From: Planctomycetota bacterium
Lineage (GTDB): Bacteria; Planctomycetota; Phycisphaerae; SM23-33
Length of the DNA stretch: 64,000 nucleotides
Assembly (NCBI GenBank): GCA_022705325.1
Contig: JAKJER010000003.1
Location: 181,419-245,418, forward strand
Direction of reading: 5' to 3'
Shown here in pieces: positions 40,508 to 64,000 of the stretch; the first letter of the stretch is position 1; each line of letters opens with the position of its first letter. Under the pieces are notes generated by a model that made no database searches, was not told where the DNA came from, and saw only the letters and a program-made list of their open reading frames with translations. Both the position numbers and the translations under genes were made by a program.

Positions 40508-42184
40508 ATGAGTATTGCCGAAGAACTGTTGGATCGCGGAATGATCACGGCGGAGCAGTTCGCCGAGGCCATGACTCTACACAAGAGCGAGGGGCTTCGT
40601 GTGGACCGGGCCCTGGTGAAGCTTGGCTGCCTGAGCGAGGATGCCCTGCTTCGGATCATGAGCGAGCAGTTGTCCATCCCCATGGTCGACCTGAGCAAGG
40701 TGAGCGTCGACGTGGAGATTCTCAAGAACCTCCCGGCCAAGCTGGTCTACCGCAAGCGCCTTGTGCCGGTCAGCCAGCACAACGGCTCGCTCACCGTCGC
40801 CACCAGCGACCCCTTCGACCTCTACGCTTTCGACGAGCTTCGCCTTCTGACGGGACTTGAGATCCGCCCCGTGCTGGCCAGTGAGGATGACATCAGCAAG
40901 ATCATCAAGGCCAACTACGGCGTCGGCGGCGACACCATCGACGAGATGATGATGTCCACCGACGACCTGGAAGTCATCAAGGACAGCAACGGGGACACCG
41001 AGGACCTCCTGGAGATGGCCCAGGAGGCCAGCGTCATCAAGCTGGTCAACGAGATCTTCCTGGAGGCCCTCAACGAGCGGGCCAGCGACATCCACATCGA
41101 GCCCTACGAGAAGGACCTCAAGATTCGCTACCGCATCGACGGCGTCCTCCATGATGCCTCGGTCCCCCCCCAGATCCGGCGATTCCAGGCCGCCATCATC
41201 AGCCGCATCAAGATCATGGCCTCCCTTAACATCGCCGAGAAACGCCTCCCCCAGGACGGGCGCATCAAGCTTCAGGCCGGCGGTCGCCAGATCGATATCC
41301 GCGTCAGCGTCATCCCGATGCTCTTCGGCGAGGGGATCGTGATGCGCTTGCTGGACAAGGCCAACGTCCTGTTCACCCTGCCGCAACTGGGCATGGACGA
41401 GACCACATTCGGCACGTTCAAGGAACTGATCGACCGCCCGCACGGTATCATCCTGGTCACCGGCCCGACCGGCAGCGGCAAGACCACCACCCTGTACGCC
41501 GCCCTCCAGGCGATCGTCAGCCCCGAGATCAAGGTTCTCACCGTCGAAGACCCCGTCGAGTACAACCTCGAGGGCGTCAATCAGATTCAGGTCCACCCGA
41601 AGATCAACATGACCTTCGCCGCCGGGCTGCGGGCCATCCTCCGCCACGACCCCGACGTGGTCATGATCGGCGAAATCCGCGATTCCGAAACCGCCGAGGC
41701 CGCCATCCAGGCCTCCCTTACCGGGCACCTGGTGTTATCCACCTTGCACACCAACGACGCCTGCTCGGCCGCCACCCGCCTGCTGGACATGGGCATCGAG
41801 CCGTTCCTGGTCTCCAGCACGCTGATGGCCGCCATGGCCCAGCGACTGGTGAGGACCATTTGCTCCGAGTGCAAGGAAGCCTACAAAGCCGACCGCGAGA
41901 ACCTGCCCGCCGACTTCACGCCTCCCGACGACCTCAAGCTCTACCGCGGGGCCGGCTGCCGAAAATGTCGCGGCACCGGCTATCACGGACGAACGGGGGT
42001 CTACGAAATGATGCTGGTCAACGAGCCGATCCGCCAGCTCATCATGGCGCGCCGCACCGCCGGCGAGATCGTCCGGGAAGCCAGGAAGATCGGGCTGCGA
42101 TTGCTGCGGGAGGACGGCTGGGACAAGGTTCGCCATGGGATTACCACCCCGGAAGAGGTTACGCGAAACACCAGCTTCGCGTAG
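40508..42184 (+). CDS. gspE: Type II secretion / type IV pilus assembly ATPase (GspE/PilB family)
   Basis: 558 aa from ATG 40508. It has an N-terminal MshEN/T2SSE_N-like domain and Walker A GPTGSGKTTT. Further motifs are the Asp box, Walker B DPDVVMIGEIRD and His box GHLVLSTLHTND. The tetracysteine motif is CSECKEAY...CRKCRGTG. Confidence 0.92.
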   Translation: MSIAEELLDRGMITAEQFAEAMTLHKSEGLRVDRALVKLGCLSEDALLRIMSEQLSIPMVDLSKVSVDVEILKNLPAKLVYRKRLVPVSQHNGSLTVATSDPFDLYAFDELRLLTGLEIRPVLASEDDISKIIKANYGVGGDTIDEMMMSTDDLEVIKDSNGDTEDLLEMAQEASVIKLVNEIFLEALNERASDIHIEPYEKDLKIRYRIDGVLHDASVPPQIRRFQAAIISRIKIMASLNIAEKRLPQDGRIKLQAGGRQIDIRVSVIPMLFGEGIVMRLLDKANVLFTLPQLGMDETTFGTFKELIDRPHGIILVTGPTGSGKTTTLYAALQAIVSPEIKVLTVEDPVEYNLEGVNQIQVHPKINMTFAAGLRAILRHDPDVVMIGEIRDSETAEAAIQASLTGHLVLSTLHTNDACSAATRLLDMGIEPFLVSSTLMAAMAQRLVRTICSECKEAYKADRENLPADFTPPDDLKLYRGAGCRKCRGTGYHGRTGVYEMMLVNEPIRQLIMARRTAGEIVREARKIGLRLLREDGWDKVRHGITTPEEVTRNTSFA

Positions 42185-42402: not shown

Positions 42403-43605
42403 ATGAGTCGCTTCTACGAGTATGTCGCCCGGAACACGGCCGGGGAAGAAGTCGCCGGCACGATGCAGGCCGACAGCGAGGCGGCCGTTGCCCGCACGCT
42501 CAACGAGCGTCAACTCTTTCCGGTCCGCGTAAGCGAGCAGGCTGACGCCGGCCAGTCCACCCGGCGCCGCAGGGGCAAGATCGCTCTGCGCCATGTCGGG
42601 GCGTTCTATGGGCAACTCAGCGACCTGCTCCAGGCCGGCGTGCCCATGATGCGGGCCCTGGACACCCTAGTCCGCTCATCGGTCAACCCCGTGTTCACGC
42701 CGATCATGCAGAAGGTTCGCGATGAGGTGTCGGCGGGCAAGACGCTGGCCGACGCGATGGCGGAGCATCCCGAGGCCTTCACCTCGCTCCATACCGCCAT
42801 GATCCGCGCCGGCGAGGCTGCGGGTTTCCTGGAAGACGTGCTGGCCAACCTGGCCCAGTTCATCGAGCGCGTGGACGACCTCCGCAGCCGTGTCCGCGGG
42901 GCCATGATCTACCCCATGATGCTCACGATTTTCGGGCTGGCGGCCATGGTGTTCATCCTCATTGTCCTGGTACCCCAGTTCAAGCCGGTCTTTAAGAACA
43001 TGCCCCTGCCTCTGCCCACTCTGGCGCTGTTTGGCCTGAGCGACCTGCTGGTCCAGTACTGGCATGTGGCGGGCGCCATGGCGCTACTGGGCCTGCTGGG
43101 GCTGCAGTTCGCACTCTCCAGTTCCTGGGGCAAGCAAAAGTGGGAGCGATGGCGCCTCAAGCTGCCCCTGCTGGGCCGCGTGACCACCATGGTCAGCATC
43201 ACCCGGTTCTGCCGCATCCTGGGCACCATGCTGGCCAACGGTGTGCCCATCATCCAGGCCCTGAACATCTCCAAGGACGCCACCGGCTGCACGGTCCTGG
43301 CCGGCCATATCGAAAAGGCCACCGACAACGTCCGCGCGGGCGAACCCCTGGCCCATCCGCTCAAAGAGAGCGGACTCTTCCCAGCCGAGATCATCGAGAT
43401 GATCGCCGTCGCCGAGGAGTCCAACCAACTCGACAAGGTTCTTGTCCAGATCGCCGATACCGTTGAACGCAGGACCAACCGCCAGGTAGACGTGGCCGTC
43501 CGCCTGGTCGAACCGCTCATCCTGGCCCTGATCGCAGGGGCCATCGGGTTCATGGCCGTCGGGCTTTATTACCCGATCTTCAACATGGCCAAGACGTTGC
43601 GCTAG
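42403..43605 (+). CDS. gspF: Type II secretion system platform protein (GspF/PilC family)
   Basis: 400 aa with two T2SSF repeats (FYGQLSDLLQAGVPMMRAL; FCRILGTMLANGVPIIQAL) and three TM segments. Confidence 0.92.
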   Translation: MSRFYEYVARNTAGEEVAGTMQADSEAAVARTLNERQLFPVRVSEQADAGQSTRRRRGKIALRHVGAFYGQLSDLLQAGVPMMRALDTLVRSSVNPVFTPIMQKVRDEVSAGKTLADAMAEHPEAFTSLHTAMIRAGEAAGFLEDVLANLAQFIERVDDLRSRVRGAMIYPMMLTIFGLAAMVFILIVLVPQFKPVFKNMPLPLPTLALFGLSDLLVQYWHVAGAMALLGLLGLQFALSSSWGKQKWERWRLKLPLLGRVTTMVSITRFCRILGTMLANGVPIIQALNISKDATGCTVLAGHIEKATDNVRAGEPLAHPLKESGLFPAEIIEMIAVAEESNQLDKVLVQIADTVERRTNRQVDVAVRLVEPLILALIAGAIGFMAVGLYYPIFNMAKTLR

Positions 43606-43741: not shown

Positions 43742-44209
43742 ATGATTGCGTCGCGAACAACTGGAAGAGGCTTTACGCTGGTCGAGGTGCTGCTGGTCAT
43801 CGTGATCATTGCCATGCTGGCTGGCGTGGCGATCGTGGCCTTCCCGGGCATTCTCAGCGGGGCCAAGGAAGATACCACGCGCCAGAAGCTCAAGGCCGTC
43901 GCCAACGTCCTGGACACGTACAACCTCCACATGGGGCACTACCCCACCGAAGAAGAGGGCGGTCTCAAGGCGCTGACGGTCAAGCCCGAGGTGGATGAGA
44001 AAGCCGCCGAGAAGTGGCGGGGGCCTTATCTTACCGAAGACCCCGTGGACGCCTGGGGCAATGAGTTCGTCTACATGCCCACGGCCCCCGAGACCTCCGG
44101 AGAGAAGACCGGCCCGGCCTACACCCTTTTCTCCAAGGGCCCCGACGGGCAGGAAAACACCGAGGATGATGTGTCGGCCCAACCCAAGAGCGAAGACTAC
44201 GAGAAGTAG
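43742..44209 (+). CDS. gspG: Major pseudopilin GspG
   Basis: ATG 43742 is preceded by AGGAGAAAGG. The prepilin motif is MIASRTTGRG/FTLVEVLLVIVIIAML. The T2SS_G signature WRGPYLTEDPVDAWGNEFVY argues for a T2SS-type pseudopilin rather than a T4 pilin. Confidence 0.9.
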   Translation: MIASRTTGRGFTLVEVLLVIVIIAMLAGVAIVAFPGILSGAKEDTTRQKLKAVANVLDTYNLHMGHYPTEEEGGLKALTVKPEVDEKAAEKWRGPYLTEDPVDAWGNEFVYMPTAPETSGEKTGPAYTLFSKGPDGQENTEDDVSAQPKSEDYEK

Positions 44210-45029
44210 CCTCGCAACGGCTGGCAATAGACAGGAGCGGCGCCGGACGCGTCTGCAGGCTTCGGCGCCGTCTCTTTGCGCTGCGCACCGGGGCCGAGGC
44301 GGCTTCACGCTCATAGAGACCTTCGTCACCCTTGTCCTGCTGAGCCTGCTGGGCGGACTGGTTATCGTCAACTTCCATTCCTGGCGGCGGGGCTACAACC
44401 TGGAGGAAGGCGCCCTCCAGGTGGAGACGCTTCTGCGCCTGACGCGAGCCGAGGCTGCACGCGTGGGCCTTCGCTTCCGCCTGCAGGCCGACGAGGAGAC
44501 CGGCACACTCCAGGTCCTCTACGAGCCCAAGCCTCTGGAAGAACCCGGGACCTTCGTCCCCTATCGCGACGCTTCGTGGGTCACCTACACCCCCGAGGCG
44601 ATGGTCCTCGTCAAACGTATCCGCCTGAGCGGCCCGGCGGCCTTCCGCACCATGAGTATTCAGCAGATCGAGGGCGGCGAGCAGAGCGAGTTCGAGCCGA
44701 TCACGCTCTACCCCGACGGCTCGTGTGACTCGGCCCTGATTGAGTTGGCCGACACGGAAGAACTCGAAGACGATCCGACACAAGCCCATCGCGCCTTGCT
44801 GATCCTGGACGGCGTGCACTGCGTGATCAATCCGCATTACATCACGCCGTCCCAATACGAAGAGTACAAGACGACCCCGTTCAACCCGGAGAATCCCAAG
44901 GCGGTCATCCCCCCGCCCCCAGAGGAAGAGGGCGAGGACCCGTACGCCCCGCCGCCGGAACCGCCCCCGCCGGGCAAGATCATCAACAAACCCTCCGGCA
45001 ACGGAAAGAACCCCAGCCTCATGGGGTAG
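44166..45029 (+). CDS. Minor pseudopilin (GspH-like), start uncertain
   Basis: The prepilin motif is RGRGG/FTLIETFVTLVLLSLLGGLVIV and a GspH-like region follows (NLEEGALQVETLLRLTRAEAARVG). No ATG, GTG or TTG lies between the gspG stop and the motif. The candidates are ATG 44166 (overlaps gspG, 42-aa leader) or CTG 44253. The C-terminus has a Pro-rich tail (PPPPEEEGEDPYAPPPEPPPPGK). Confidence 0.6.
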   Translation: MMCRPNPRAKTTRSSLATAGNRQERRRTRLQASAPSLCAAHRGRGGFTLIETFVTLVLLSLLGGLVIVNFHSWRRGYNLEEGALQVETLLRLTRAEAARVGLRFRLQADEETGTLQVLYEPKPLEEPGTFVPYRDASWVTYTPEAMVLVKRIRLSGPAAFRTMSIQQIEGGEQSEFEPITLYPDGSCDSALIELADTEELEDDPTQAHRALLILDGVHCVINPHYITPSQYEEYKTTPFNPENPKAVIPPPPEEEGEDPYAPPPEPPPPGKIINKPSGNGKNPSLMG

Positions 45030-45101: not shown

Positions 45102-45593
45102 ATGGCTCCCCTGGCTGACAGCTTCGGTGCCTGGTCGGCGAGTCGGCGCGGCGGCATCCTGTTGGAGGTCGTCCTGGCGATGGTGCTGTTCTTCTCGGCC
45201 GGGGCGGTCATTCTGGCCGGGCTGGGCAGCGCCGTGCGCGGCATGGAGCAGCTTCGCCTGGACGCCCAGGCGGCCGACCTGGCTGTCACGCTGCTTTCGC
45301 GCCTGCAGATCGGCGACCTGGAACTGACCGACGCCGGGCCCACCGAGTTCGAACCCATTGAGGGCCCCGAGCAGGAACTGGAAGGCTGGACGTGGCAGGT
45401 GATCACCACCGAGATGCAGGACACCATCGATGCCGGCGGGCCCACGGGCAAACTCGTCCAGGTGATCGTGAAGAACGAACAGAAAGGATACTCCTACCGC
45501 CTTTCGCAGTGGTTGGCCACCGATGAGTCGGGCCAGGTGGTGACCGCCGCGACCCAACCCGCCGCCAGCGCCAGCGAGGAGGACCTGCCATGA
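45102..45593 (+). CDS. Minor pseudopilin (GspI-like) with atypical cleavage motif
   Basis: 163 aa. The motif SRRGG/ILLEVVLAMVLFFSAGAVIL has Ile instead of Phe at +1 but retains Glu at +5. Size and position fit GspI. Confidence 0.55.
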   Translation: MAPLADSFGAWSASRRGGILLEVVLAMVLFFSAGAVILAGLGSAVRGMEQLRLDAQAADLAVTLLSRLQIGDLELTDAGPTEFEPIEGPEQELEGWTWQVITTEMQDTIDAGGPTGKLVQVIVKNEQKGYSYRLSQWLATDESGQVVTAATQPAASASEEDLP

Positions 45594-46303
45594 AGCGGGG
45601 CGGCTTCACACTCTTCGAGGCCCTGTTGGCCATTGGATTGTCCATCGGCATCGTCGGCGGGACGATGGCCCTGTACCAGCAGGCCGTCATGATCCGCCAA
45701 CGCATCAGCGAGGACCTCGAGGTCCTGACGGCCGAGCGGATCATCATGGACCGCATGACGCAAGAGATGCGTGCCGCGATCGTCTACCCGTTCCTTGGCT
45801 TTGGCCTGGAAGGCCAGGCCGACAGCATCACGTTCATGACCGCGACCGTCCCGGGCCCGGCTGCCTGGGCGGTTCGATCAGGATCCGAAGACCCCGTCCC
45901 ACCGGAGACGGACCTGCAACTGGTGACGTATCGCATGCGAACGTACGAGGATGACTACGGCATGCTCCAGGTCGCGGGGATCGAGCGAAGCTGCCAGCGG
46001 ATCCTGTCCTCCCCCACCGCCCAGGAAGGGGCCGACGTGTCCACCGTCCTGCTGACCCCCTACATTCAGCACATGCAGTTCGCCTTCTTTGACGGATCAG
46101 GCTGGACCAACATCTGGCAGGACAAGGGGCTCCCCCTGGCCGTCGAGGTGACGATGGGTTTCCCGCCCCTGCCCGAAGAGGTCGAGGCCCAGGATTATCC
46201 CTACCCGGTCTTTCGGCGCATGATCTACCTGCCCGGCGCGACCACCTCGCTCCAGGGCCCGCTCATCCGCGGGCTGGGCGGACGGAGAGGAGGGGGACGA
46301 TGA
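45590..46303 (+). CDS. Minor pseudopilin (GspJ-like)
   Basis: 237 aa starting MKRGG/FTLFEALLAIGLSIGIV. The start overlaps the previous stop (ATGA at 45590-45593) and is preceded by GAGGAGGA. Confidence 0.6.
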   Translation: MKRGGFTLFEALLAIGLSIGIVGGTMALYQQAVMIRQRISEDLEVLTAERIIMDRMTQEMRAAIVYPFLGFGLEGQADSITFMTATVPGPAAWAVRSGSEDPVPPETDLQLVTYRMRTYEDDYGMLQVAGIERSCQRILSSPTAQEGADVSTVLLTPYIQHMQFAFFDGSGWTNIWQDKGLPLAVEVTMGFPPLPEEVEAQDYPYPVFRRMIYLPGATTSLQGPLIRGLGGRRGGGR

Positions 46304-46324
46304 TGATTGCTGATTACGGATCGC

Positions 46325-46376
46325 GGATTGCCGATTGCAGACGATTGACGATTGTCGATTGTCGATTCTCGACTCG
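46325..46376. repeat. Degenerate heptamer tandem array (CGATTGN) in the gspJ-like / gspK spacer
   Basis: The units are ggattgc cgattgc (aga) cgattga cgattgt cgattgt cgattct cgactcg. This AT-richer patch lies in the 158-nt spacer. A direct decamer repeat ccgcagtccg (46436-46445 and 46451-46460) follows just before ATG 46462. Confidence 0.7.
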
Positions 46377-46461: not shown

Positions 46462-47865
46462 ATGGCGAAGGGCACGATCCTGGTGGCGGTGCTCGTCGTG
46501 ACGGCCCTGGCGTCGATGGTGGCGGTGACGGCAATGTACCGCATGCACAGCGAAAGCGCCGCTTGCGCCGCCAGCACCCTCAACGAGCAGGCGCACGCCG
46601 CGGCCATGAGCGGCATCGCCCGCGTGACCGCACTGCTGCGCGTCGTTCGCGAGAGCGGGATCGATCTGTACGACAACCCCGGCCTGCTTCGCACCCAACT
46701 CGTCTGCGACGACGGCATTAACAAGTGGTACTTCACCATCTACGCGGGGGTTGACGCCCCGGGCTTCGGCGGCTCGACATTCGACTCCGCCGGGGACGCC
46801 AAGGTCCGCTACGGCGTGATCGACGAGGCCGCCAAGATCAACATCAACTTCGCCACGCCCGAGTCGCTGCTGGCCCTGCCCGGCATGAACGAGGAACTGG
46901 CCGACTGCCTTGTCGACTTCCGCGACCGCGACAACGAACCCCTGCCTAACGGCGCCGAGCAGGAATACTACGACCAACTCCCCCGTCCTTACAAAGCCAA
47001 GAACGGGTTCTTCTTCACCCTGGAAGAGACGCTGCTGGTCAAGGGCTTCAACGGATCGATCCTGTACGGCGAAGACGCCAACCTCAACGGGATGCTCGAG
47101 CCGAACGAGGACGACGGGGACGCGACCTTCCCGGCCGACGACTCGGACGGGCAACTCAATCCCGGCCTGCGCGGGCTGGCCACCACGCTGACCTACGAAC
47201 CCGACGTCGACAACGAGGGCCAGGCCCGCACCAACCTCAATACGGCCGTCCGCTCCGTCGAGGGCCTCGACCCGCGCACAACGGCGTTCATCCAGGCGTA
47301 CCTGGCCGACAAGAACGTCTTCACGCATCCGAGTCAACTGCTGAACATGGAGTACCGTCTGAAAGCGGACCAGCCGACCAAGGCCGGCCAAACGGGCCGA
47401 AAGGCCGGCGAGGTCATCTACTCCTACGTAGACGCCTCGACGCTGCCGCTGGTGCTGGATCGCCTGACAACCAATCCTTCCAAGATGCCCCTTTTCGGGC
47501 TGCTCAACGTGAACAGCGCACCGGCGGGCGCGCTAGCCGCCGTGCCGGGCATGGACGCCGACCTGGCGCGGCGGATCGTGGACGCTCGGGCTTCCATCGC
47601 CCCCGAAGCCCGCGCCACGACGGCGTGGCTGTTCACCGAGGGACTGATGGATGCCGATCGCTTCAAGCAGGTCGCCCCCCGGCTGACCGCACGCACCTTC
47701 CAGTACCGCGTCCAATGCGTGGGCTTCGGCTGGCCTTGCGGGCGGTATCGGGTCATCGAGGCCGTGGTGGACCTGGCCGGCGGGACGCCGAGACTGCTGT
47801 ACATGCGCGACCTGACGCGCATGGGAGTCCCCCTGCCGCTGAACGTGGACTCGGGCGAAGGATGA
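46462..47865 (+). CDS. gspK: Minor pseudopilin GspK
   Basis: 467 aa from ATG 46462. The hydrophobic N-terminus MAKGTILVAVLVVTALASMV lacks Glu+5, as is typical for GspK. GspK blocks are present (RYGVIDEAAKININFATPESLLALPGMNEELADCLVDFRD, EEYYDQLPRPYKAKNGFFFTLEETLLVKGF) along with a second HhH-like segment (LLNVNSAPAGALAAVPGMDADLARRIVDAR). Confidence 0.8.
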   Translation: MAKGTILVAVLVVTALASMVAVTAMYRMHSESAACAASTLNEQAHAAAMSGIARVTALLRVVRESGIDLYDNPGLLRTQLVCDDGINKWYFTIYAGVDAPGFGGSTFDSAGDAKVRYGVIDEAAKININFATPESLLALPGMNEELADCLVDFRDRDNEPLPNGAEQEYYDQLPRPYKAKNGFFFTLEETLLVKGFNGSILYGEDANLNGMLEPNEDDGDATFPADDSDGQLNPGLRGLATTLTYEPDVDNEGQARTNLNTAVRSVEGLDPRTTAFIQAYLADKNVFTHPSQLLNMEYRLKADQPTKAGQTGRKAGEVIYSYVDASTLPLVLDRLTTNPSKMPLFGLLNVNSAPAGALAAVPGMDADLARRIVDARASIAPEARATTAWLFTEGLMDADRFKQVAPRLTARTFQYRVQCVGFGWPCGRYRVIEAVVDLAGGTPRLLYMRDLTRMGVPLPLNVDSGEG

Positions 47866-50029: not shown

Positions 50030-51098
50030 GCGCGAGAAGACGATGGCTGGCCTGACCGCCGCCATGGCGGGGATCTTCCTGGGTTTCCTGACGATCAACG
50101 GCTTCGTGCTCAAACCGCTGCAGAAGATGGATGTCGACGCCCAGAAGCTCAGCGGGCAACTGGCGAGCTTGCAGCGAGAGAATGCAGCCCGCAAGAGCCT
50201 CGAGCCGCGTCTCAAGGAGTTGGTGTCGCGCTGCTTCGGCGGCGACGAACTCAAGGCGGGCGAGGAACTGCGGGCCCGGCTGGTGACGCTGATGGACCAG
50301 GCGGGGCTGTCCACCGAGAAGCGTCTGCTGAACCCGGTCACCGGACAGTCGGTCAGTGGCGCGTACAAGGAGATCGGACGGCGGGTACAGGTCAGCGGGA
50401 AGCTCGGCAACGCCGTCGACTTCCTCTATTTGCTCAATGCAGAGCCGCACCTGCACCGCCTGGACTCGCTCAGCCTCACACCCGCCCAGGGAGGCACCGT
50501 GGAGTTGAACCTGACCTACTCCACGCTCGTGCCAGCGGAGGGCTTGCCAGCCTCCAAGGACATCAAGCCGCTTCCCACGCAGCCCGCGCCCAACCTGCGA
50601 GAAGGCGAGCGGACACTGTACGATCCGATCGCGTCGCGAGATCTTCTGCGCCCGTACATCAAGCGCCCCCCGCCGCCTCCCCCGGTGCCGCAGCCCGTGC
50701 CCGCTGTTGCACGCCGCCATGATCCGCCCCCACCGCCTCCCCCGCCGCCAAAGACCAGCAGCGAGGGACGCTATCGCCTGGTCCTCATGCCGATGGCGCC
50801 GGGAGAGCCGTTCTCCGTGCTGGACCAGAGCACGCGCCAGACCTACTCCTACAACATCGGGCAGTTCCTGGGCGGCGGAAAGGTCGTCATGGTCGACTTC
50901 CGCCCCTGTCCCCTCCCGGACGACCCCGACACGATCTCGCCCAGCAGGCTCATTCTCCAGATCGGCGACGCCTACTGGGCCGTCGAGTATGGACAGACCC
51001 TCTCGGCCAAGCGACAATTGCGGAAGGATGAATTGCCTCCTGAATTGTCTGGCGCCGCAGCAGCGCCGGCCAGTCAACCGGCCTCGCCAGCCTCCTGA
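50022..51098 (+). CDS. PilO/GspM-like protein with C-terminal PilP/GspC-HR-like domain
   Basis: 358 aa, with an 8-nt overlap with the previous gene. It has an N-terminal TM (LTAAMAGIFLGFLTINGFVL), a coiled coil and a PilO-like domain (VSGKLGNAVDFLYLLNAEPHLHRLDSLSLTP). A Pro-rich linker (PPPPPPVPQPVP...PPPPPPPPK) follows. The last part is a ~90-aa beta-rich domain (YRLVLMPMAPGEPFSVLDQSTRQTYSYNIGQFLGGGKVVMVDF...LILQIGDAYWAVEYGQTL). Domain calls are by pattern only. Confidence 0.55.
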   Translation: MNKREKTMAGLTAAMAGIFLGFLTINGFVLKPLQKMDVDAQKLSGQLASLQRENAARKSLEPRLKELVSRCFGGDELKAGEELRARLVTLMDQAGLSTEKRLLNPVTGQSVSGAYKEIGRRVQVSGKLGNAVDFLYLLNAEPHLHRLDSLSLTPAQGGTVELNLTYSTLVPAEGLPASKDIKPLPTQPAPNLREGERTLYDPIASRDLLRPYIKRPPPPPPVPQPVPAVARRHDPPPPPPPPPKTSSEGRYRLVLMPMAPGEPFSVLDQSTRQTYSYNIGQFLGGGKVVMVDFRPCPLPDDPDTISPSRLILQIGDAYWAVEYGQTLSAKRQLRKDELPPELSGAAAAPASQPASPAS

Positions 51099-51336: not shown

Positions 51337-51350
51337 CAGGAGATCAGACG

Positions 51351-57300: not shown

Positions 57301-60300
57301 GCCGGCGCCCCGGCGCCGTGCCCAATCGCGCCGGTCCGCAGCCCACCTTCGACGTCGACGCCGCCAGCAACCAACTCCTGGTCGCCGCCACGTCTGAACA
57401 ACTCATCGAGATCGAGCAGCTCATCCAGAAGATGGACAATCCGGAGGTGCAGGCCGTCCAGACCCGCATCTTCCCCATCCAGCACGCCAAGGCCGACGAG
57501 CTGGTCACTCTCCTTCAGACGATGCTGAATGAGAATCCCCCCTCGGCCGCCTACGGCAGCTCGGCGTACTACTCGCGACGCTACCGCCCGACCGGGTCGT
57601 CCAGTGGAGACGACATCCGCATTTCCACGCTGCCCGGCACGAACAGCATTGTCGTCCAGGGGCCGCCCAACAAGCTTACGCGGGCCGAACAGCTCATCAA
57701 GAGCTTTGACACGCCCGAGGCGGCCGTCGCCGCCACCGTCACCATCATCCCCATCAAGAACGCCTCCGCGGCCACCCTGGTCGAGACCCTGCGGGCCATG
57801 CTCCCGCCGGTCAAGGGTCGGGCCGAGGAAGTGTTCATCCAGGCCGACATCCTGACCAACTCCGTGCTCATCCGCGCTCCCGAGACCCAACGGAAAATGG
57901 TCACCGAGTTGGTCGCCAAGCTGGACACCCAGAGCGAGCTTACCCGCGAGATGCGCGTTATCCCGCTCACCTTCACCAGCGCCACCCAACTCGCCAGCGC
58001 CCTGCAGGTCATGTACCAGCAGCACATGGCCACCCGGGGCGGCCCGCGGGCCAAGCCGGTGGACCCGGCCGAGCAGGTCATCTTCACCCCCGCGCCGCAC
58101 GACCAGGCCCTGGTCGTCGAGGCGCCCAAGAAGAAGATGGAGGAGATCGCCGCCCTCATCGAGAAGCTGGACGTCCAGGAAAGCCCCGACCGCCTCACGG
58201 TACGCACCTACCAGTTGGCCGAGAACTCCGACGCGGTCGAGACCGCCCGTACGCTGGCCAAGCTCTTTACCGAGACCCGCGTTCGCCCGGGCGCGATCGC
58301 GGGCAATCAACAGCAGCCCCGCTTCGAGGCCGACGGAGTGGGCAACCAGCTCATCATCGCCGCCACGCCCAAGCAGTTCGAGGAGATCGAGCCGCTGCTG
58401 AAGAAGCTCCAGGACTCCGCCCAGCTTGCCGTGCGAAGCAAAACCTACCAGCTCAAGTTCGCCAAGGCCGCCGACATCGTCCAGATGCTCCAGTCCATGC
58501 TGACCGGGACCACCGGCCGGTCGCGGTACTCCGCCTATGGGGACCCGGCCGCCGCGTCGAGCGAGGTCCGTGTCGCTGCCGTCAACGGCAGCAACAGTGT
58601 CTTCGTCCAGGGGCCGCCGGCCAAGCTGGCCATGGCCGACGAACTGATCCGCACCTTCGACACCGAGCAGGCGGCTGCCCGCAGCGTGATTCAGATCATC
58701 AAGCTCAAGAACGCCCAGGCGGCCTCGCTGGCCCAGGCCGTCAACGCCACGCTGGAGGCCCGGGCCGCCCGCCGTCCTTACGGCGAGCAGGCCGGCGCCG
58801 ACGACGGAAAGGTCACCGTCACGCCCGAGCCCAACTCCAACAGCCTTCTGGTCCGCGGGCCGCTGGCCGAGATTCCCTCCGTGCTGGAGATGATCCGCGA
58901 CCTGGATGAGGGCGGGACGAGCGCCAAGAGCGAAGTCCGCATCTTCCCGATCAAGAACTCCGACGCATACGAGCTTTCGACAACCCTGGGCAGACTGGTG
59001 CAGGACATGATCGCCCAGCAGACGCGCGCTCGCGGCGACGTGCCCGTGCCGGCCTTCAGCATCGCCGCCGACACCCGCACCAACTCGCTCATCGTCTCCA
59101 CCACCTCCGCCTACTTCGCCATCGTCGAGCAACTCCTGGAGAACCTCGACAAGGAACAGCCCATCCGCGACGTTCAGTACATCGCTCTGACCAACGCCCA
59201 AGCCGTCGACGTAGCCGAGAAGGTCAACGCCCTCTTCACCGACCGCAAAGGGTCCGACAAGCCTGTCATCGAGGCGGAGGAGTACACCAATTCCCTCACC
59301 GTCATCGCCAAGGCGGTGGACCTGCTGACGATCCAGGAAATGGTGGAGAAGCTCGACAAGGGACGGCGCGAACTTCAGGTCCGGGTCGTCCCCATCAAGC
59401 AGATCAAGGCCGAACGGATGGCCGAGATCATCCAGCGGGTATACGGGCAGACGACGAGCAGCCGTGTCATCGTCACCGGCCAGTCCCCCCCGACGCGGAT
59501 GGGGATCGAGTTGCCCGCCCCTCAACCGACGCCCGCTCCGCCCCCGCCGGCGGGCAAAGGCCCCGCCGCTTCGGCCAAGCCGTGGACCGGCAGCGTTCCT
59601 CGCCCGGCGACGCAGCCAGCCACCCGGCCCACCACGCGACCGGAGAGCGCCCCAGCCGCCAAGGACGATGGCGAGTTGGAGGAGAACCCTCCGATCACCA
59701 TCGCCATCGACCATAAGAGCAACACGCTGATCATCTCGGGCCCGCCCCAGGAGATCGACAACATCCAGGGCCTCATCGACCAGATGATGACCTCGCCCGA
59801 GGAGGCCGAGGCTGAGTTCCGGACCTATAGGATCGAGCACGCCGACCCGGTGGTTCTGGCCCAGACGCTGGAGGACATGTTCAACCCCAAGCCCAAGGTA
59901 GTCTACCTCCAAGCCCGTACCGGACAGCCGGCGCAGGCCCCGGCTGAACCGCCCCCGCCCATTACTGTACAGGCCGACGCCCGCACTCGCTCCATTGTCG
60001 TCCGGGCGAAAGTCATCGACTTCGACATGATCGAGCCGCTGATCAAGTACCTCGACCAGGAGACTTCCGCCCACAGCGAACTGCGCGTCTTCCCGCTGGA
60101 GAACACCGAGGCCGGCGAGGTCGCCGACAACCTCAAGGAGATGTTCAACCTGGCCCAGAAGGGGACCGCGGCCCAGCCCGCGCCCCAGCCTCAGGCCGGG
60201 CGCACGGCCCAGCGCGGCCGGGCCGACCGTGTCCGCCAGGTCATGGACCTGCAGGTCGCTGCCGGCGGCTCAGCCAAGGTCGATCCCTATTCGGCCATCT

Positions 60301-63300
60301 CCATCTCCGCCAACCGCAACACCAACAGCGTGGTCGTCTCGGCGCCTAAGGAAGTCATGAAGCTCGTCGAGTCGATCATTCAGGAGTTGGACCAGTCGGC
60401 TCTCCAGTCCAAGACCGTGGTCCGCATGTACCCGCTCAAGCACGCCGAGGTCACGCCGACGGTGTCGGCCCTGCGGGAGATCTTCTCGCAGGCGGCCCGC
60501 ACCAGCCCGCTGCGCTCGTCCCGCACCGGTTCGACGCCCGGAGCCTCGCTGCGAGACGCCCCGATCGTCGTCACCGGCGACGAGGTCGGCAGGCAGATCA
60601 TCGTGTCCGCCCCCGTCACCCAGCATGAAACGGTCGCCAAGGTCATCCAGGACATCGACACCGCCCAGGGAGTCGGGCAGATCCTGGTGCAGGTCTACCG
60701 CATCCAGAACGCGGAGGCGACCAGCGTCGCCGCTTCACTCAGTACCATGTTCTCGTCGACGGCCTCCGCCGCCGGCACGGGGCGGCGTGTCCGCACTGCC
60801 ACCGGAGGCGGCGGCCCCAGGATCAGCGCCGACGCCAGCAGCAACTGCATCGTGGTGCGGGCCGTCCAGGAGGACCACGCCGAGATCACCCGTCTGCTGG
60901 AGGAACTGGACGCCTCGCCGGCCGACAAGTATCCCGTGCGCCGCATCCCCATCCAGAACGCAAGCCCCACCGTCCTGGCCACCAACCTGCGGGCGGTCTT
61001 CGCCGGCCGTTCAGGCACGGCTGGCGGGCGGCGAGGCGGTGCCGCCGGACGCGACGGACTGGTCATACAGCCTGACGAGGACGCCCGCATGCTCCTGGTC
61101 CGAGCGGACGAGGAGACCTACAAGAAGATCGAGGAGATGGTCCAGGCCCTCGATGCCGTCAGCGTCTCCGACAAGCTCCAGACCGTCATCATCCCGCTCG
61201 AACACGGGCAGGCGACCAGCGTGGCCGCCGCATTATCCCAGGCGTTCGGCGCCTCCGCACGCGGGGGACGCCGCTCCACCAGCCCCGAAGACGAAGTCCG
61301 CATCGCTGCGGAGACGTTCACCAACTCCATCCTGATCACCGCCAGCGAGAAGAATCTGCTGAAGATCCAGGCGATGGTCCAGAAGCTTGAGAAGGACACG
61401 GCCGGCGGGGTCAAGAGCGAGTTCCTTGTGCTCACCAACGCCAAGGCCGACGACCTGGCGACCGTCCTGGCACGCCTGGCCGGCGCGAGCGGACGCGGCG
61501 CCCGGGGCGCAGCCGGGACCGGCGGGGTCACCGTGGCCGCCGATGCCGCCGCCAACGCCCTGGTGTTCTCCGGACCGGCCGCCGAGGTCGCGAAGCTCTC
61601 GACGATGGCCAAGCAACTCGACCAGGCGGCTCAGGGCTCGGCTGTCCAGGTGTTCATGATCCCGTTGAAGAACAACATCGCGTCGGAGGTGGCAGCCGCC
61701 ATCCAGCAACTCCACGCCCAGCAGGCGGTGCGCCGCGGCGGGGCCGCTTCCCGCGAACCGCTCTCGGTCACGTTCGACGACTCCGCCAACGTCGTCGTCC
61801 TGTCCACCACCAAGCGACAGTATGACGAGATTTCACAGTGGGTGACCAAGTTCGAGGAACTGAAGGTCACGCGCGAAGCCCCGAAGATCATCGCCCTGGT
61901 CAACAGCGACCCGCAGGAGATCGAGCGGGCCCTTCGCCAGATGTTCGCCGGCGGGTCGGCCCCTGGAGGGCGCGGCTCGCGGACCGTTCGCACCACCGGC
62001 AAGGTCGAGATCGCCTCTCTGCCACAGCAGCGTGCCCTGCTGGTCAAGGCTGGCGCCGAGGACTTCAAGCTCATCAGCGATCTGGTCAAGTCGCTGGACG
62101 AGTCGGCCCCGACCGCCATGCCCAAGCAGACAATGGTCGCGCTGAAGCACGCGCCGGCCGCCAGCGTGGCCTCCGCCTTGACGGCGGCCTTCGGCCCCGG
62201 CAGGCGAGGGCGCACCGCCCTGGCCCGACCCGAGGATGAGGTCCGCGTCGTGGCCGAGGCGGCCTCCAACTCCGTCATCATCACCGCCGACGAGAAGAAC
62301 ACGACCGCCGTGCTGAGCCTGATCGCCAAGCTGGACACCGACGAGGCCTCGGGCAAGGCCCAGTTCCTGATCCTCAAGAAGGCCAAAGCCGTCGAGTTGG
62401 CCCGCGTGCTCAGCGCGGCCACGTCGCGGGGCGCCCGCAAGCCGGGCCAGCAGCCGCTGGTAGTCACGGCGGATGCCGCCAGCAACGCCCTGGTCCTCTC
62501 GGGCCCGCCCAACGACATCGAAGCCGCCATCGCCATGGCCACCAAGCTGGACGAGGCCGCCACGGCGGGCATCTCGGAAGTCTTCCTGATCCCGCTCAAG
62601 ACGGGCCAGGCCAGCGAGGTCGCCGCCACCGTACAGCAGATCTACCAGCAGCAGGCCGCGGCGACGCGCTCGGCGGGGCGGACGATCGACCCCCTCGCCG
62701 TCTCGGCTGATGACTCGGCCAACGTGATCATCCTGGCCACCACCAAGGTCATGCATGACCAGGTGAACCAGTGGATCGGCAAGGTCGAAGAGATGAAGGT
62801 CGGCCAGGGCGAGCCGCGCCTGGTCACGCTCGAGAACGCCGATGTGGCCGAGGTAGAGAAGGCCGTGCGGGCGTTGTTCATCACTGTCCGGGCGACCGCC
62901 GGGCGTGGCGCCCGCGGGGCGGCCGGGGCCACCGGCGCCCGTATCGAGGTGGCTTCCCTGCCCCAGCAGCGGGCCTTGCTGATCAAGTCCGGCGAGGAAG
63001 ACTTCAAGGCCATCAACGACCTGATCATGGCACTGGACGCAGCCGCCGTCACCCGCCTGAACAAGCAGACGATCATTCCGCTGAAGCACGCCCAGGCCAC
63101 CAGCGTAGCTCCGGCTTTGCAGTCGGCATTTCAGCAGCAGATTCGCGGGCGCGGAGCGGCGGTGAAGCCAGAAGATGAGGTCCGCATCATCGCCGAGCCG
63201 ATCTCCAACACATTGATCGTGGCTGCCAGCGACAAGAACACGGTCCTCGTGCAGGGCCTGGTGGCCAAGCTGGATACGGACGAGGCCTCGGGCAAGGCCC

Positions 63301-64000
63301 AGTTCCTGATTCTCCAGAAGGCCAAGGCGGTCGAACTGGCCAAGGTGCTGTCTACGGTGTCGGCCAGTCGCAGCCGTAAGCCCGGCCAGCAACCGCTGAT
63401 CATCACCGCCGACGTTGCCAGCAACGCCTTGGTCATGTCGGGCTCCGCGACCGAGATGGACGCGGCGATCAAGATGGCGCAGGAGTTGGACGGCGCCGCC
63501 AGCGAGAGCCTCGCGCAGGTATTCCTGATCACGCTCAAGAGCGGACAGGCCAGCGACGTGGCTGCCACGGTTCAGCAGATTTATCAGCAGCAGACGGCGG
63601 CCGCCCGCACCGCGGGCCGCTCCATCGATCCCCTGGCGGTCTCGGCGGATGACTCCGCCAACGTGCTCATCCTCTCAACCACCAAGGCGATGCATGACCA
63701 GGTGAACCAGTGGGTGCAGAAGGTTGAGGAGATGAAACTCAACCAGGAAGCGCCCCAGTTGGTCACCCTCGAGAACGCCGACGTCCAGGAAGTGGAGAAG
63801 GCCATCCGACAGATCTTCGTCTCCGGGAAGGTCAGCCGAACGGGAAAGGCCATCGGGAAGATCGAATTGGCCGTGTTGCCCCAGCAGCGAGCCTTGTTGA
63901 TCAAGGCGGGCGAGGAGGACTTCAAGGCCATCAACGAGTTGATCAAGTCCCTGGACGCTGCGGCCGTTGCCGCCAAGCACCAGCAGACGCTGATTACACT
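51351..64000 (+). CDS. Giant secretin (GspD)-like protein with about 47 tandem secretin N-domain-like modules; 5' partial, continues beyond the window
   Basis: This ORF is not in the supplied track. ATG 51351 has GGAG 8 nt upstream, and the frame with codons starting at positions divisible by 3 has no stop through nt 64000 (>=4,216 codons). I translated it manually end to end. It has signal peptide MRTNWILAFAVISALAVALTAQ, an (APTT[QK]PAVAA)x11 linker and an N0-like domain (KIFLFQFSGCPYHEVIRKFAQACKKPLLGEVEIPGSLTFFDSEPYCYEEALDTLNILLNMRGFALIEFKRYLRVVQV). Repeated modules of the form xxTFPLKHAKAEELVNVLQTML...(loop)...IQADTASNSLLIRASATQRKIIDELIPKLD follow. All checked repeat anchors (54360, 55380, 56454, 57462, 58437, 61416, 62358, 63297) are in this frame. 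It is co-directional with, and directly downstream of, the T2SS genes. Confidence 0.85.
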   Translation, partial: MRTNWILAFAVISALAVALTAQTTKPSPQPATQPAAAPTTQPAVAAAPTTKPAVAAAPTTQPAVAAAPTTKPAVVAAPTTQPAVAAAPTTKPAVAAAPTTQPAVAAAPTTKPAVAAAPTTKPAVAAAPTTKPAVAAAPTTQPAVAAAPTVRPAGTYSKDSPKIFLFQFSGCPYHEVIRKFAQACKKPLLGEVEIPGSLTFFDSEPYCYEEALDTLNILLNMRGFALIEFKRYLRVVQVTELANNASILRGLDQVGDIRNEQVVTVLLPVENLDPEAASKAIVRMVSSYGSITPMPRGKGVLITDRLSSVRRIQDMIQMLDAERATASDIKTIQIKKASAKSVASVINQVLGGPSSSPERRSSSAPPASSGDSVSAYSDDRTNLLFLRGVGAKLQLAEQLVEKLDSEATSDVSDMRLIELKNARAEDVAKTISEVMPRDQIQVAGPPSSDSSRRHYPVTVAKGKVVAEPETNRLIVSAPLDVMVKIEELIKKLDVASDTSGGVKVLRLKTADAAQLAPIVSAAVAKQTLAAGGARRGMVTVTADSRTNSLVIVGPAGDIQAAEKLVAELDRPLDKEEERQIRIIQLPSGNAEKLASAISRVLDSSPSSHYGSSRYGSSSSRSQTSRPRIEADSGTNSLLISAAPSDWPQIESILKQIIPPPPPDQPAAATPLALTTPVLRHVPLKFAKAEDLATTLLSVFGTRRRSEAVSIIITPSARTNSLLISAAEPDQIAMGELIKTLDVDSSEKLDPVRIVELKVADAAKVADAIQAVLPPRPVGRRGETHQVTIHADTATNTLFIRAGEAEQKLIDEVIARMDKGAIDPTIVRETRIIALKFVPASQMAASVQQFFQSAGGSPSSPYGSSYYRRRSYSSASGEKAFDSLVVAAAPGDQALIVEGPKKKVDEVAAFVAKLDTQDTGQATIVRVYTLKEADAGEISRTLSATFSKKWQDQKRRDPKLADPEPSFEINAGANQLIIAATEKQLTEIDALIAQLEKAPAVTSQTKTFPLKHAKAEELVNVLQTMLTSGAPSPYSGYAYSRRSRSVEGELKIAAIAASNSLVIQGPPAKMAKAEQLIASFDTPQAGESSLISIVPLKAASASQLAVTLKNMLPPQSRERESELVIQADTASNSLLIRASATQRKIIDELIPKLDVELAEGTREMRVVPVMFVSASQIAQTVSQVFRGQNGTSSSSSSYRRSYYRSYDAPQAGPGSDEILITPAPNDRSIVIEAPKKKIEPIVQLIATLDVAEGTAKANQIRTYQLKNANAAEVSRVLSGMYTQRTSGYGEAPSARGGSGPTATPPKFDHDTATNQLVVSASDEQFVEIDALIKKLEEAPQLATQTKTFPLKHVRASEVLPVLTNLLSETPASTPEGYAGYSPYSSRRRYGASASSELRLAALPGANSIVAQGPPPKMLKVEQLIASFDTPQAGESSLITMVPLKNASAAKLAETLKSMLPAASRDKPSELVVQADTATNSLLIRADGTQRKMLDELILKLDVEVVQTAREMRVVPVQFVSAAQIAQTVSQVFLKQDASSSSYRRSSYYYRSYYRSYDEPEEPTRTGADADKIVVTASPNDRSVIVEAPKLKIEPVVQLITTLDVPEGTAKPQQIRTYQLKNANAAETARILSNMYAQRQNGSVSSYGEEGSPSRTAKSKIPAPKFDHDAGSNQLVISANDEQFVEIEALIKTLDETPQLATQTKTFPLKHARASEIVPLLTSLLSDTPSSPAVGSYSRYSSRSRYGASATAGEVHVATLPGTNSVIVQGPPAKLTQAEQLISTFDTPEAGGSSLVTVIPLKNASAVTLAETLRSMLPPPVRGRPEEIVIQADSLTNSLLVRAPEDQRKTIDDLIAKLDGGLADNAQTREMRIIPVKHLSAAQLAETVSVMYQQLREARRGLRARPVDPGEQVVITPSPNDRSIVVEAPKKKVEEIAKLVADLDTEENSFQILVRTYQLKTASASELARSLTNIFAAKVAGSASPGRRPGAVPNRAGPQPTFDVDAASNQLLVAATSEQLIEIEQLIQKMDNPEVQAVQTRIFPIQHAKADELVTLLQTMLNENPPSAAYGSSAYYSRRYRPTGSSSGDDIRISTLPGTNSIVVQGPPNKLTRAEQLIKSFDTPEAAVAATVTIIPIKNASAATLVETLRAMLPPVKGRAEEVFIQADILTNSVLIRAPETQRKMVTELVAKLDTQSELTREMRVIPLTFTSATQLASALQVMYQQHMATRGGPRAKPVDPAEQVIFTPAPHDQALVVEAPKKKMEEIAALIEKLDVQESPDRLTVRTYQLAENSDAVETARTLAKLFTETRVRPGAIAGNQQQPRFEADGVGNQLIIAATPKQFEEIEPLLKKLQDSAQLAVRSKTYQLKFAKAADIVQMLQSMLTGTTGRSRYSAYGDPAAASSEVRVAAVNGSNSVFVQGPPAKLAMADELIRTFDTEQAAARSVIQIIKLKNAQAASLAQAVNATLEARAARRPYGEQAGADDGKVTVTPEPNSNSLLVRGPLAEIPSVLEMIRDLDEGGTSAKSEVRIFPIKNSDAYELSTTLGRLVQDMIAQQTRARGDVPVPAFSIAADTRTNSLIVSTTSAYFAIVEQLLENLDKEQPIRDVQYIALTNAQAVDVAEKVNALFTDRKGSDKPVIEAEEYTNSLTVIAKAVDLLTIQEMVEKLDKGRRELQVRVVPIKQIKAERMAEIIQRVYGQTTSSRVIVTGQSPPTRMGIELPAPQPTPAPPPPAGKGPAASAKPWTGSVPRPATQPATRPTTRPESAPAAKDDGELEENPPITIAIDHKSNTLIISGPPQEIDNIQGLIDQMMTSPEEAEAEFRTYRIEHADPVVLAQTLEDMFNPKPKVVYLQARTGQPAQAPAEPPPPITVQADARTRSIVVRAKVIDFDMIEPLIKYLDQETSAHSELRVFPLENTEAGEVADNLKEMFNLAQKGTAAQPAPQPQAGRTAQRGRADRVRQVMDLQVAAGGSAKVDPYSAISISANRNTNSVVVSAPKEVMKLVESIIQELDQSALQSKTVVRMYPLKHAEVTPTVSALREIFSQAARTSPLRSSRTGSTPGASLRDAPIVVTGDEVGRQIIVSAPVTQHETVAKVIQDIDTAQGVGQILVQVYRIQNAEATSVAASLSTMFSSTASAAGTGRRVRTATGGGGPRISADASSNCIVVRAVQEDHAEITRLLEELDASPADKYPVRRIPIQNASPTVLATNLRAVFAGRSGTAGGRRGGAAGRDGLVIQPDEDARMLLVRADEETYKKIEEMVQALDAVSVSDKLQTVIIPLEHGQATSVAAALSQAFGASARGGRRSTSPEDEVRIAAETFTNSILITASEKNLLKIQAMVQKLEKDTAGGVKSEFLVLTNAKADDLATVLARLAGASGRGARGAAGTGGVTVAADAAANALVFSGPAAEVAKLSTMAKQLDQAAQGSAVQVFMIPLKNNIASEVAAAIQQLHAQQAVRRGGAASREPLSVTFDDSANVVVLSTTKRQYDEISQWVTKFEELKVTREAPKIIALVNSDPQEIERALRQMFAGGSAPGGRGSRTVRTTGKVEIASLPQQRALLVKAGAEDFKLISDLVKSLDESAPTAMPKQTMVALKHAPAASVASALTAAFGPGRRGRTALARPEDEVRVVAEAASNSVIITADEKNTTAVLSLIAKLDTDEASGKAQFLILKKAKAVELARVLSAATSRGARKPGQQPLVVTADAASNALVLSGPPNDIEAAIAMATKLDEAATAGISEVFLIPLKTGQASEVAATVQQIYQQQAAATRSAGRTIDPLAVSADDSANVIILATTKVMHDQVNQWIGKVEEMKVGQGEPRLVTLENADVAEVEKAVRALFITVRATAGRGARGAAGATGARIEVASLPQQRALLIKSGEEDFKAINDLIMALDAAAVTRLNKQTIIPLKHAQATSVAPALQSAFQQQIRGRGAAVKPEDEVRIIAEPISNTLIVAASDKNTVLVQGLVAKLDTDEASGKAQFLILQKAKAVELAKVLSTVSASRSRKPGQQPLIITADVASNALVMSGSATEMDAAIKMAQELDGAASESLAQVFLITLKSGQASDVAATVQQIYQQQTAAARTAGRSIDPLAVSADDSANVLILSTTKAMHDQVNQWVQKVEEMKLNQEAPQLVTLENADVQEVEKAIRQIFVSGKVSRTGKAIGKIELAVLPQQRALLIKAGEEDFKAINELIKSLDAAAVAAKHQQTLIT
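51459..51800 (+). repeat. In-frame 30-nt tandem repeat (11 copies plus a degenerate 12th) encoding APTT[Q/K]PAVAA
   Basis: Units start at 51459, 51489 and so on up to 51759. Two nucleotide variants largely alternate (gcaccgaccacccagcccgccgtcgctgcc and gcgccgaccaccaagccggccgttgccgct), giving a 60-nt higher-order period. The track ORFs 51344..51835(-) and 51511..51801(+) are shadows of this repeat. Confidence 0.95.
54360..58436 (+). repeat. Super-repeat family 1 inside the giant ORF: four copies of a 4-module (~1 kb) unit
   Basis: Anchors are TKTFPLKHAKAEE (54360), TKTFPLKHVRASE (55380), TKTFPLKHARASE (56454) and TRIFPIQHAKADE (57462). A diverged fifth copy starts at SKTYQLKFAKAAD (58437). Periods are 1020, 1074, 1008 and 975 nt. 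Each copy holds four distinct module types in fixed order. Confidence 0.85.
61416..64000 (+). repeat. Super-repeat family 2 inside the giant ORF: 4-module (~0.94 kb) unit, at least 2.7 copies, continuing past the window
   Basis: Anchors are SEFLVLTNAKADDLA (61416), AQFLILKKAKAVELA (62358) and AQFLILQKAKAVELA (63297). Periods are 942 and 939 nt. A 60-nt stretch aligned by eye (62341-62400 against 63281-63340) is identical at 54 of 60 positions. Confidence 0.85.

Follow-up and report, generated by a model that had tools for sequence, protein, structure and literature searches.

The 64,000-nucleotide stretch analysed here (the window; contig JAKJER010000003.1 of the assembly GCA_022705325.1 from an uncultured Phycisphaerae bacterium, Planctomycetota) carries at positions 40508-64000 ten co-oriented genes on the + strand, namely gspE, gspF, gspG, gspH-, gspI- and gspJ-like genes, gspK, two fusion genes designated here as MN and OP, and a giant gspD that encodes the secretin and runs beyond the end of the window (Table 1). 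We propose, with a probability of about 60%, that this locus encodes a variant type II secretion system (T2SS) that is specific to the Planctomycetes-Verrucomicrobia-Chlamydiae (PVC) superphylum, occurring in Phycisphaerae and some Verrucomicrobiota, and whose secretin would form a very long periplasmic conduit. Apart from the peptidase, the locus contains every part of a Gsp-type machine, its most unusual element being the giant secretin.

Ordinary secretins possess three to six domains that build stacked rings. The last gene of the locus lies in a stop-free frame extending from 51273 to 63998, and its open reading frame (ORF), starting at 51351, is still open at position 64000, with a GC content at third codon positions (GC3) of 0.87. 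An exhaustive HMMER search followed by cluster look-up recovered a public protein of 6,885 amino acids (aa), P0300, and the window ORF is 100% identical to its residues 1-4216. When the last 716 aa of the ORF served as query for a word-indexed homologue search, the matches were ordinary secretins only, and a scan of genome contigs with the last 500 aa gave no match. From the N- to the C-terminus the secretin, with a protomer mass of 734 kDa, comprises a signal peptide, a Pro/Thr repeat, an N0 domain, an N1-like domain, 74 Secretin_N-type domains and a GspD-type pore, and thus ∼76 N-type domains per protomer. Using a hidden Markov model (HMM) built from the repeats, the 74 domains were located back to back at residues 328-6538 of P0300, with linkers that mostly measure 3-6 residues and never exceed 18; some of the domains contain low-complexity insertions rich in Ser/Tyr/Arg or in Pro, one domain carrying a Pro-rich insertion. 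Pfam detected 46 Secretin_N stretches within the 4,216 residues in view, as well as a weak N0 in the window protein (17.7 bits, cut-off 27), and gave no match to AMIN domains in the secretin. The pore domain is located at residues 6540-6843, ∼6,300 residues away from N0 at the extreme N-terminal end. The C-terminal 760 aa of P0300 scored 411 bits with the GspD model TIGR02517 (cut-off 351), whereas the pore region remained below the cut-off of the PilQ model TIGR02515 (256 bits, cut-off 284).

When the N domains were compared with each other, similarity peaked for domains lying 4, 8 and 12 positions apart. Blocks of four-domain duplications, some of them 90-100% identical, make up domains 9-25 and 35-58, and ∼33 domains are old and divergent, showing at most 40% identity to any other; the array therefore consists of an ancient many-domain core plus recent lineage-specific growth. 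Between residues 3592 and 4748 of P0300 (from ∼62124 to the window end at 64000 and onward) the four-domain super-repeats share 90-100% protein identity, as domains 41 and 49 do, which implies very recent tandem duplication, and the length of the secretin probably varies between strains. The tandem repeat located between the signal peptide and N0 was resolved into 11.4 copies of 30 nt, or a 60-nt unit at 96% match, by the Tandem Repeats Finder (TRF), and most short-read metagenome contigs end within it. P0295 has 80 residues fewer than P0300 in this Pro/Thr repeat. Beside P0300, a second full-length deposit, OQB85541.1 (6,805 aa), which was automatically named 'Type II secretion system protein D precursor', shares the C-terminal 6,764 residues without any difference and deviates in the N-terminal repeat alone. 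Furthermore, of seven partial sequences that belong to the cluster and come from other assemblies, six could be assigned a position on P0300, jointly covering residues 82-6885.

The giant secretin is widespread. The exhaustive search returned 413 clusters (50% identity) at E ≤ 1e-30. Among the best 150 of these 413 clusters, 122 of the 150 representatives combine a pore domain with 19-56 N domains, and the secretins in these 122 clusters have a median length of 4,218 aa and a maximum of 5,532 aa. Complete orthologues of 3,200-5,500 aa, with signal peptide and pore, were found in more than 100 clusters; by Pfam, P0130 contains N0, 45 Secretin_N domains and Secretin, and P0132 contains 40 Secretin_N domains and Secretin. 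The gene order E-F-G-H-I-J-K-MN-OP-D was found again in four relatives, the secretins of which comprise 4,739, 3,245, 4,536 and 3,506 aa. A fifth relative, L012, shows the same order with a frame after OP that is open for at least 2,973 aa and unfinished at the end of the locus, and which is broken into small spurious genes by the public gene calls. Scanning species-representative genomes with the MN family alignment detected 156 genomes with an MN relative. In the 80 loci kept from these genomes, with flanks of 10 kb, the downstream ORF had N-domain matches in 66, and 48 of those 66 ORFs hold 26-33 N domains while still being open at the end of the flank. Among these loci are some from metagenome-assembled genomes (MAGs) labelled as Verrucomicrobiota (Pedosphaera, Limisphaerales and others), with an MN identity of 31-36%, and at loci L060-L092, from Verrucomicrobiota MAGs, the PilM-PilN gene precedes a secretin ORF that exceeds 2,900 aa and is open at the flank end. 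The organism labels of several records in this latter group are implausible (Akkermansia muciniphila, Klebsiella, Anaerolineales, Proteobacteria). As the same operon and the giant secretin recur in Phycisphaerae and Verrucomicrobiota, the arrangement is a conserved system type in part of the PVC superphylum and not the peculiarity of one genome. The sequences are already public and automatically annotated. The giant multi-N secretin itself is seemingly undescribed, as no published description was found in searches that did not reach most subscription journals, which is absence of evidence only; in a preprint on giant genes of Omnitrophota, gspD appears only as a neighbour of other giant genes. 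Since giant gspD genes are routinely broken or mis-called in metagenome assemblies, such systems are probably under-counted.

For the core of the machine, the outcome with the curated equivalog models of NCBIfam was clear. GspE exceeded the cut-off of TIGR02533 (659.1 bits, cut-off 630.25) but not that of the PilB model TIGR02538 (612.7 bits, cut-off 675.65), and GspG exceeded that of TIGR01710 (108.4 bits, cut-off 88.85). Judged from these profiles, in which GspE, GspG and GspD exceed their equivalog cut-offs and PilB and PilQ do not, the machine has a core of the Gsp type and not of the type IV pilus (T4P) type. Of the T2SS components, GspE, GspG, the minor pseudopilins, a GspD secretin and a GspC homology region (HR) domain were found. 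A PilB above its cut-off, a PilT in the window and a PilQ with AMIN domains, as expected for a type IVa pilus (T4aP), were not; the PilM and PilO folds of the T4aP alignment complex are clear, but occur as two fusion proteins. A preliminary description of the window had called the locus a hybrid of T2SS and T4P, which is overstated. Its PilM-PilN assignment was upheld by the profile searches, whereas its PilO-PilP assignment shifted to GspM/PilO plus GspC HR. From its sequences, the system would be expected to work like a T2SS, of which it has most of the defining parts but no GspL.

At the position of GspL, the MN protein had been described as a PilM-PilN fusion, and this was confirmed by both profile and structural comparison. 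It consists of a full actin-like PilM domain (residues 17-328), a conserved LPFDFLxPKRP linker, a transmembrane (TM) helix with coiled coil (348-415), a ferredoxin-like periplasmic domain (419-500), a Pro-rich region and a charged C-terminal helix. The family profile (34 members) matched only PilM chains among PDB sequences (E 6e-16) and no GspL. With the AlphaFold (AF2) model, which has a mean predicted confidence (pLDDT) of 81, the top Foldseek match was 5eou, the Pseudomonas aeruginosa PilM:PilN(1-12) complex (E 3.8e-21, TM-score 0.76), and the model also superposes well on Thermus PilM-PilN, while the cytoplasmic domains of GspL ranked only 31-34 (E ∼5e-9). The FDFLxPKRP segment following the PilM domain is invariant in the family, and we infer that it occupies the place of the PilN N-terminal peptide. 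With a full-size PilM fused to PilN and no GspL profile match, MN does not qualify as a GspL; it has the fusion architecture of GspL but without the reduced actin-like domain of the latter, and is proposed to be its functional equivalent. As a separate observation, EF-hand matches occur in many MN orthologues, in what the model layout indicates to be periplasmic C-terminal tails. An EF-hand protein of 483 aa is also encoded at 38712-40163 (− strand), transcribed divergently from gspE, and a similar EF-hand gene lies upstream of gspE in L012. These occurrences suggest a calcium link.

The OP protein comprises a TM helix with coiled coil (residues 3-94), a ferredoxin-like domain (102-171), an RDLLRPYIKRP motif, a poly-Pro linker and a beta domain (251-322). 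Its N-terminal half was identified as GspM by profile in 12 of 17 family members and as PilO by fold, the best fold matches being PilO of Myxococcus xanthus and P. aeruginosa, and Amuc_1100. As GspM and PilO represent one fold class, the choice between them is largely semantic. Pfam gave nothing significant on OP, its family profile produced only spurious matches with PDB sequences, and none of the PilN, PilO and PilP profiles passed at the locus. The C-terminal beta domain exhibits the fold of the GspC HR domain, although a PDZ domain or coiled-coil C-terminus of GspC was not detected in OP. The protein is hence indeed a fusion with a PilO/GspM fold, as previously described, but its second part is a GspC HR-type domain and not PilP. 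Since a GspC HR module is fused to a GspM/PilO-type protein, GspC is not absent, contrary to the preliminary description.

The locus shares with the T2SS of proteobacteria (Gsp/Eps/Xcp/Pul) the order E-F-G-H-I-J-K followed by platform accessory proteins and the secretin, the equivalog matches of GspE, GspG and GspD, a GspK without Glu5, a GspC HR-type domain and GspM-like matches. In contrast to these systems, a full PilM-PilN fusion replaces GspL, GspM and the GspC HR domain reside in one polypeptide, gspD is the last gene instead of being placed beside gspC, and gspO and gspN are not in this locus. The secretin contains ∼76 N-type domains instead of four (N0-N3), ∼20 times the usual number, in 6,885 aa as compared with roughly 650-750 aa in ordinary GspD. 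The two platform fusions, the terminal gspD and, above all, the ∼20-fold number of N domains set this machine apart from all described T2SS. The PilQ of Thermus thermophilus, which has six N rings, called unusually many and said to span a wide periplasm (PMC5745081), is similar in that additional ring-forming N domains extend the portion of the secretin that lies in the periplasm, but it is a protein of 757 residues serving a T4P and DNA uptake, unlike the ∼76-domain protein with a GspD-type pore described here. Compared with the T4aP of P. aeruginosa and M. xanthus, in which PilM, PilN, PilO and PilP are four proteins, there are two fusions here, the ATPase, pilins and secretin are Gsp-type, and no PilT was found in the window. 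A relative of this locus within the PVC lineage is the Amuc_1098-1102 cluster of A. muciniphila, which has been discussed as pili-forming (PMC4960237). The Amuc_1101-family model matches MN and the Amuc_1098-family model matches the pore, all far below the family cut-offs, and Amuc_1100 is among the top structural matches of OP. Amuc_1098 itself is a secretin of 907 residues with an N-terminal TPR/BAM-like region and no multi-N array (PMC4960237).

On the basis of these assignments, GspE would provide the power with which GspG is assembled into a pseudopilus on the GspF platform, with GspH-I-J-K forming its cap and the PilM-PilN fusion doing the job of GspL. HR-type domains bind the secretin N0 in solved complexes, and in OP the HR-type domain joined to the GspM/PilO-type domain would likewise dock onto N0. 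By analogy with solved secretins the N domains may stack as rings; with ∼3 nm per ring, which is our own estimate, 76 rings would add up to a tube in the periplasm measuring roughly 200 nm or more. Such a tube would span the enlarged periplasm reported for PVC bacteria, linking the platform in the inner membrane with the outer membrane, and would house a correspondingly long GspG filament. An enlarged periplasm has been described for Planctomycetota (PMC11131199), and the most parsimonious interpretation is that the secretin was lengthened so as to maintain the link between the pore in the outer membrane and the platform in the inner membrane across this space. The function of the machine would then be protein secretion. 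It is conceivable, although we hold it only tentatively and at less than even odds, that in Phycisphaerae and some Verrucomicrobiota a continuous tube of at least 200 nm bridges both membranes across the enlarged periplasm (the former 'paryphoplasm') and that the long GspG filament inside it moves the cargo. In that case no longer trans-envelope conduit would be known, the four-domain duplications would tune its length, and structures spanning the envelope that electron microscopy has shown in PVC cells might correspond to it.

The main rival explanation is that the machine does not secrete proteins but builds a T4P-like fibre, on the surface or in the periplasm, for adhesion, uptake or motility, with the secretin tube as a sheath guiding it to the surface. 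The PilM-PilN type of the platform, the fold matches of OP to PilO and Amuc_1100, the weak match of MN to the Amuc_1101 family and the MshEN domain of the ATPase, as present in MSHA pilus ATPases, all point in this direction. Moreover, a filament of at least 200 nm inside a tube would in effect be a pilus, and the related Akkermansia cluster has been discussed in the same sense (PMC4960237). Nevertheless, we consider a fibre unlikely, though it deserves to be kept in sight, since GspE, GspG and GspD pass their cut-offs where PilB and PilQ do not, one of the minor pseudopilins is a GspK that carries T2SSK domains, OP contains a GspC HR-type domain, no PilT/PilU retraction ATPase in the window and no AMIN domains were found, and the secretin of the Akkermansia cluster is an ordinary one of 907 residues (PMC4960237).

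Two further explanations concern the secretin itself. The N-domain array might not be a conduit of stacked rings: most of the 74 domains would be a flexible spacer or act as a tether or scaffold, for instance by binding cell-wall or periplasmic partners, with only the pore-proximal domains forming rings as in ordinary GspD. The ∼33 divergent domains together with two blocks of four-domain duplications are the pattern of a length-variable spacer, and the range of 19 to 56 domains among relatives and the low-complexity insertions in some domains would fit as well. This explanation appears improbable in view of the short linkers, which are as expected for tightly packed domains, and of the match of every unit to the ring-building Secretin_N model; in addition, N0 lies at the far N-terminal end, so that for it to meet the inner-membrane HR domain the whole array must span the gap. 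That the giant ORF is an artefact of collapsed or expanded repeats or of a chimaera, the real secretin being of ordinary size, is already largely refuted and to be given hardly any weight. Near-identical four-domain repeats do exist, many short-read contigs break in the 5′ tandem repeat, in which P0295 and P0300 differ by 80 residues, and one public record splits an orthologous frame into small, wrong genes. However, two full-length assemblies agree over 6,764 aa, the partial members cover nearly the entire protein, the frame is uninterrupted with the GC3 of a coding sequence, and complete orthologues exist in more than 100 clusters, beside the same operon in dozens of species.

Several points weigh against the T2SS variant with a long conduit that we favour. 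GspF, GspH, GspI, GspJ and the GspM part of OP remained below the curated cut-offs, and neither a prepilin peptidase in the 64-kb window nor substrates near the locus were located. As the super-repeats are in part 99-100% identical, their exact copy number could be affected by assembly. A pseudopilus piston of 200 nm is hard to reconcile with the usual T2SS model, and the Verrucomicrobiota with the same secretin are not all known for a wide periplasm. Finally, the PilM-type protein in the GspL position and the resemblance of OP to T4P PilO and Amuc_1100 leave room for a fibre function.

Table 1. Positions of the genes and secretin elements of the gsp locus in the window.
Feature	Position	Strand	Evidence
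gspE, assembly ATPase with N-terminal MshEN domain	40508..42184	+	TIGR02533; Pfam T2SSE 472 bits, MshEN 79 bits
gspF, inner-membrane platform protein	42403..43605	+	Pfam T2SSF x2, 189.7 bits
gspG, major pseudopilin, GFTLVE class III signal and DAWGNEFVY motif	43742..44209	+	TIGR01710; Pfam T2SSG 82.6 bits; N_methyl
gspH-like minor pseudopilin, start uncertain	44166..45029	+	Weak GspH and N_methyl matches; GFTLIE motif at 44298
gspI-like minor pseudopilin	45102..45593	+	Position, size, GG-ILLE N-terminus; weak XpsI match, E 0.0018
gspJ-like minor pseudopilin	45590..46303	+	Pfam T2SSJ 25.4 bits (cut-off 28); TIGR01711 E 4e-5; GFTLFE motif
gspK, tip pseudopilin without Glu+5, helix-hairpin-helix (HhH) motifs	46462..47865	+	Pfam T2SSK models; NF037980 GspK E 5e-17
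PilM-PilN fusion MN, 652 aa	48071..50029	+	Pfam PilM_2 75.8 bits; PDB profile search; Foldseek
GspM/PilO-like and GspC-HR-like fusion OP	50022..51098	+	Profile and fold matches
Giant gspD, first 4,216 of 6,885 codons, ∼8 kb more beyond the window	51351..64000	+	Stop-free frame; identity to P0300
30/60-nt tandem repeat, ∼13 copies of (A)APTT[QK]PAVAA, between signal peptide and N0	51453..51796	+	TRF
Array of 46 consecutive Secretin_N-type domains, residues 328-4205; 28 more beyond the window	52332..63965	+	HMM built from repeats

The ORF coordinates bear out the gene order, the positions and the common + strand given in the preliminary description, including the secretin-like ORF as the last gene, and its statement that this is not a textbook Gsp operon holds as well. 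GC3 values of 0.77-0.87 across the ORFs of the locus correspond to the codon bias of real genes, and independent public assemblies of this organism gave the same gene calls. The MN protein is deposited in an exact copy under 'Planctomycetes bacterium ADurb.Bin126', and MN relatives are labelled Phycisphaerae. The five long spacers noted earlier were found to have exactly the reported lengths, and comparison with the four related loci revealed that they are specific to this lineage: 218 nt between E and F (11-77 nt in the related loci), 136 nt between F and G (76-117 nt), 158 nt between J and K (−4 to 11 nt), 205 nt between K and MN (−8 to 2 nt) and 252 nt between OP and D (23-55 nt). No common element was found in a repeat search of the long spacers; the direct repeats detected in this search were the prepilin N-terminal motifs of G, H and J. 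Rfam at gathering thresholds gave no match in the whole window, and promoter and terminator scans of 40-52 kb predicted no more sites than in shuffled sequence. The J-K spacer (46304-46461) has a GC content of 0.55, low for this genome, and consists mostly of degenerate CGATTG/GATTGC short repeats.

The pseudopilin set proved to be of the T2SS type, as had been stated, with its order conserved. GspG contains the DAWGNEFVY signature and, like GspK, which exceeds the Pfam cut-offs of T2SSK_1st (44.3 bits, cut-off 26.2) and T2SSK (27.5 bits, cut-off 24.2), is accepted by its models; the N-terminus of GspK (MAKG/TILVA) does lack a Glu at position +5. For the H-, I- and J-like proteins the T2SS models were the best but weak matches, and these genes are in the correct order and carry prepilin motifs. 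In the gspH-like gene no ATG, GTG or TTG is present between the gspG stop codon and the GFTLIE cleavage motif, so that translation would start either at ATG 44166, resulting in a leader of 45 residues and a 44-nt overlap with gspG, or at a non-canonical codon such as CTG 44253, located downstream of AGGAG; its orthologues in the relatives show weak Pfam GspH matches. The best NCBIfam match of GspF was to TIGR02120 (GspF) with 324 bits, below the cut-off of 424, and both of its Pfam T2SSF domains pass. At the N-terminus of GspE (40508-40960), the NCBIfam model of a cyclic di-GMP (c-di-GMP)-binding motif scored 36.7 bits, 1.3 short of its cut-off of 38, and judging from this MshEN near-match the machine may be under c-di-GMP control.

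Neither Peptidase_A24/GspO nor GspN was matched by Pfam in the major ORFs of the 64-kb window, in agreement with the preliminary description. A prepilin peptidase hidden in an unannotated frame was rejected, as a six-frame scan of the 64 kb revealed no stop-free stretch of at least 150 aa with four or more hydrophobic segments. The gene for a prepilin peptidase frequently lies apart from such loci, or one peptidase serves several systems (PMC6668835). Nor was an ORF for PilT/PilU or for a second T2SSE-family ATPase found in the window, and the neighbourhood of the locus yielded no secretion substrate. At a distance from the gsp genes, an ORF at 3650-4633 (+ strand) exhibits a prepilin-type N-methylation motif at residues 86-106 of its longest frame and may encode an orphan prepilin-like protein. 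Elsewhere, the region 11214-22199 (− strand) carries genes for the large and small subunits of a [NiFe] hydrogenase, FAD/NAD and Fe-S subunits, a histidine kinase, a response regulator and the maturation genes hypE-like, hypD and hypF, which is consistent with a lifestyle in anaerobic digesters.

A conserved family of secretins with 20 to ∼76 N-type domains, encoded by the same T2SS-like operon, would represent a different physical solution for crossing the bacterial envelope. For the export of proteins by PVC bacteria with a greatly enlarged periplasm this locus offers a concrete candidate structure, and a structure of such size should be visible by cryo-electron tomography. In addition, the natural PilM-PilN fusion in the GspL position and the GspM-GspC fusion bear on the evolution of the T2SS platform from T4P-type parts.

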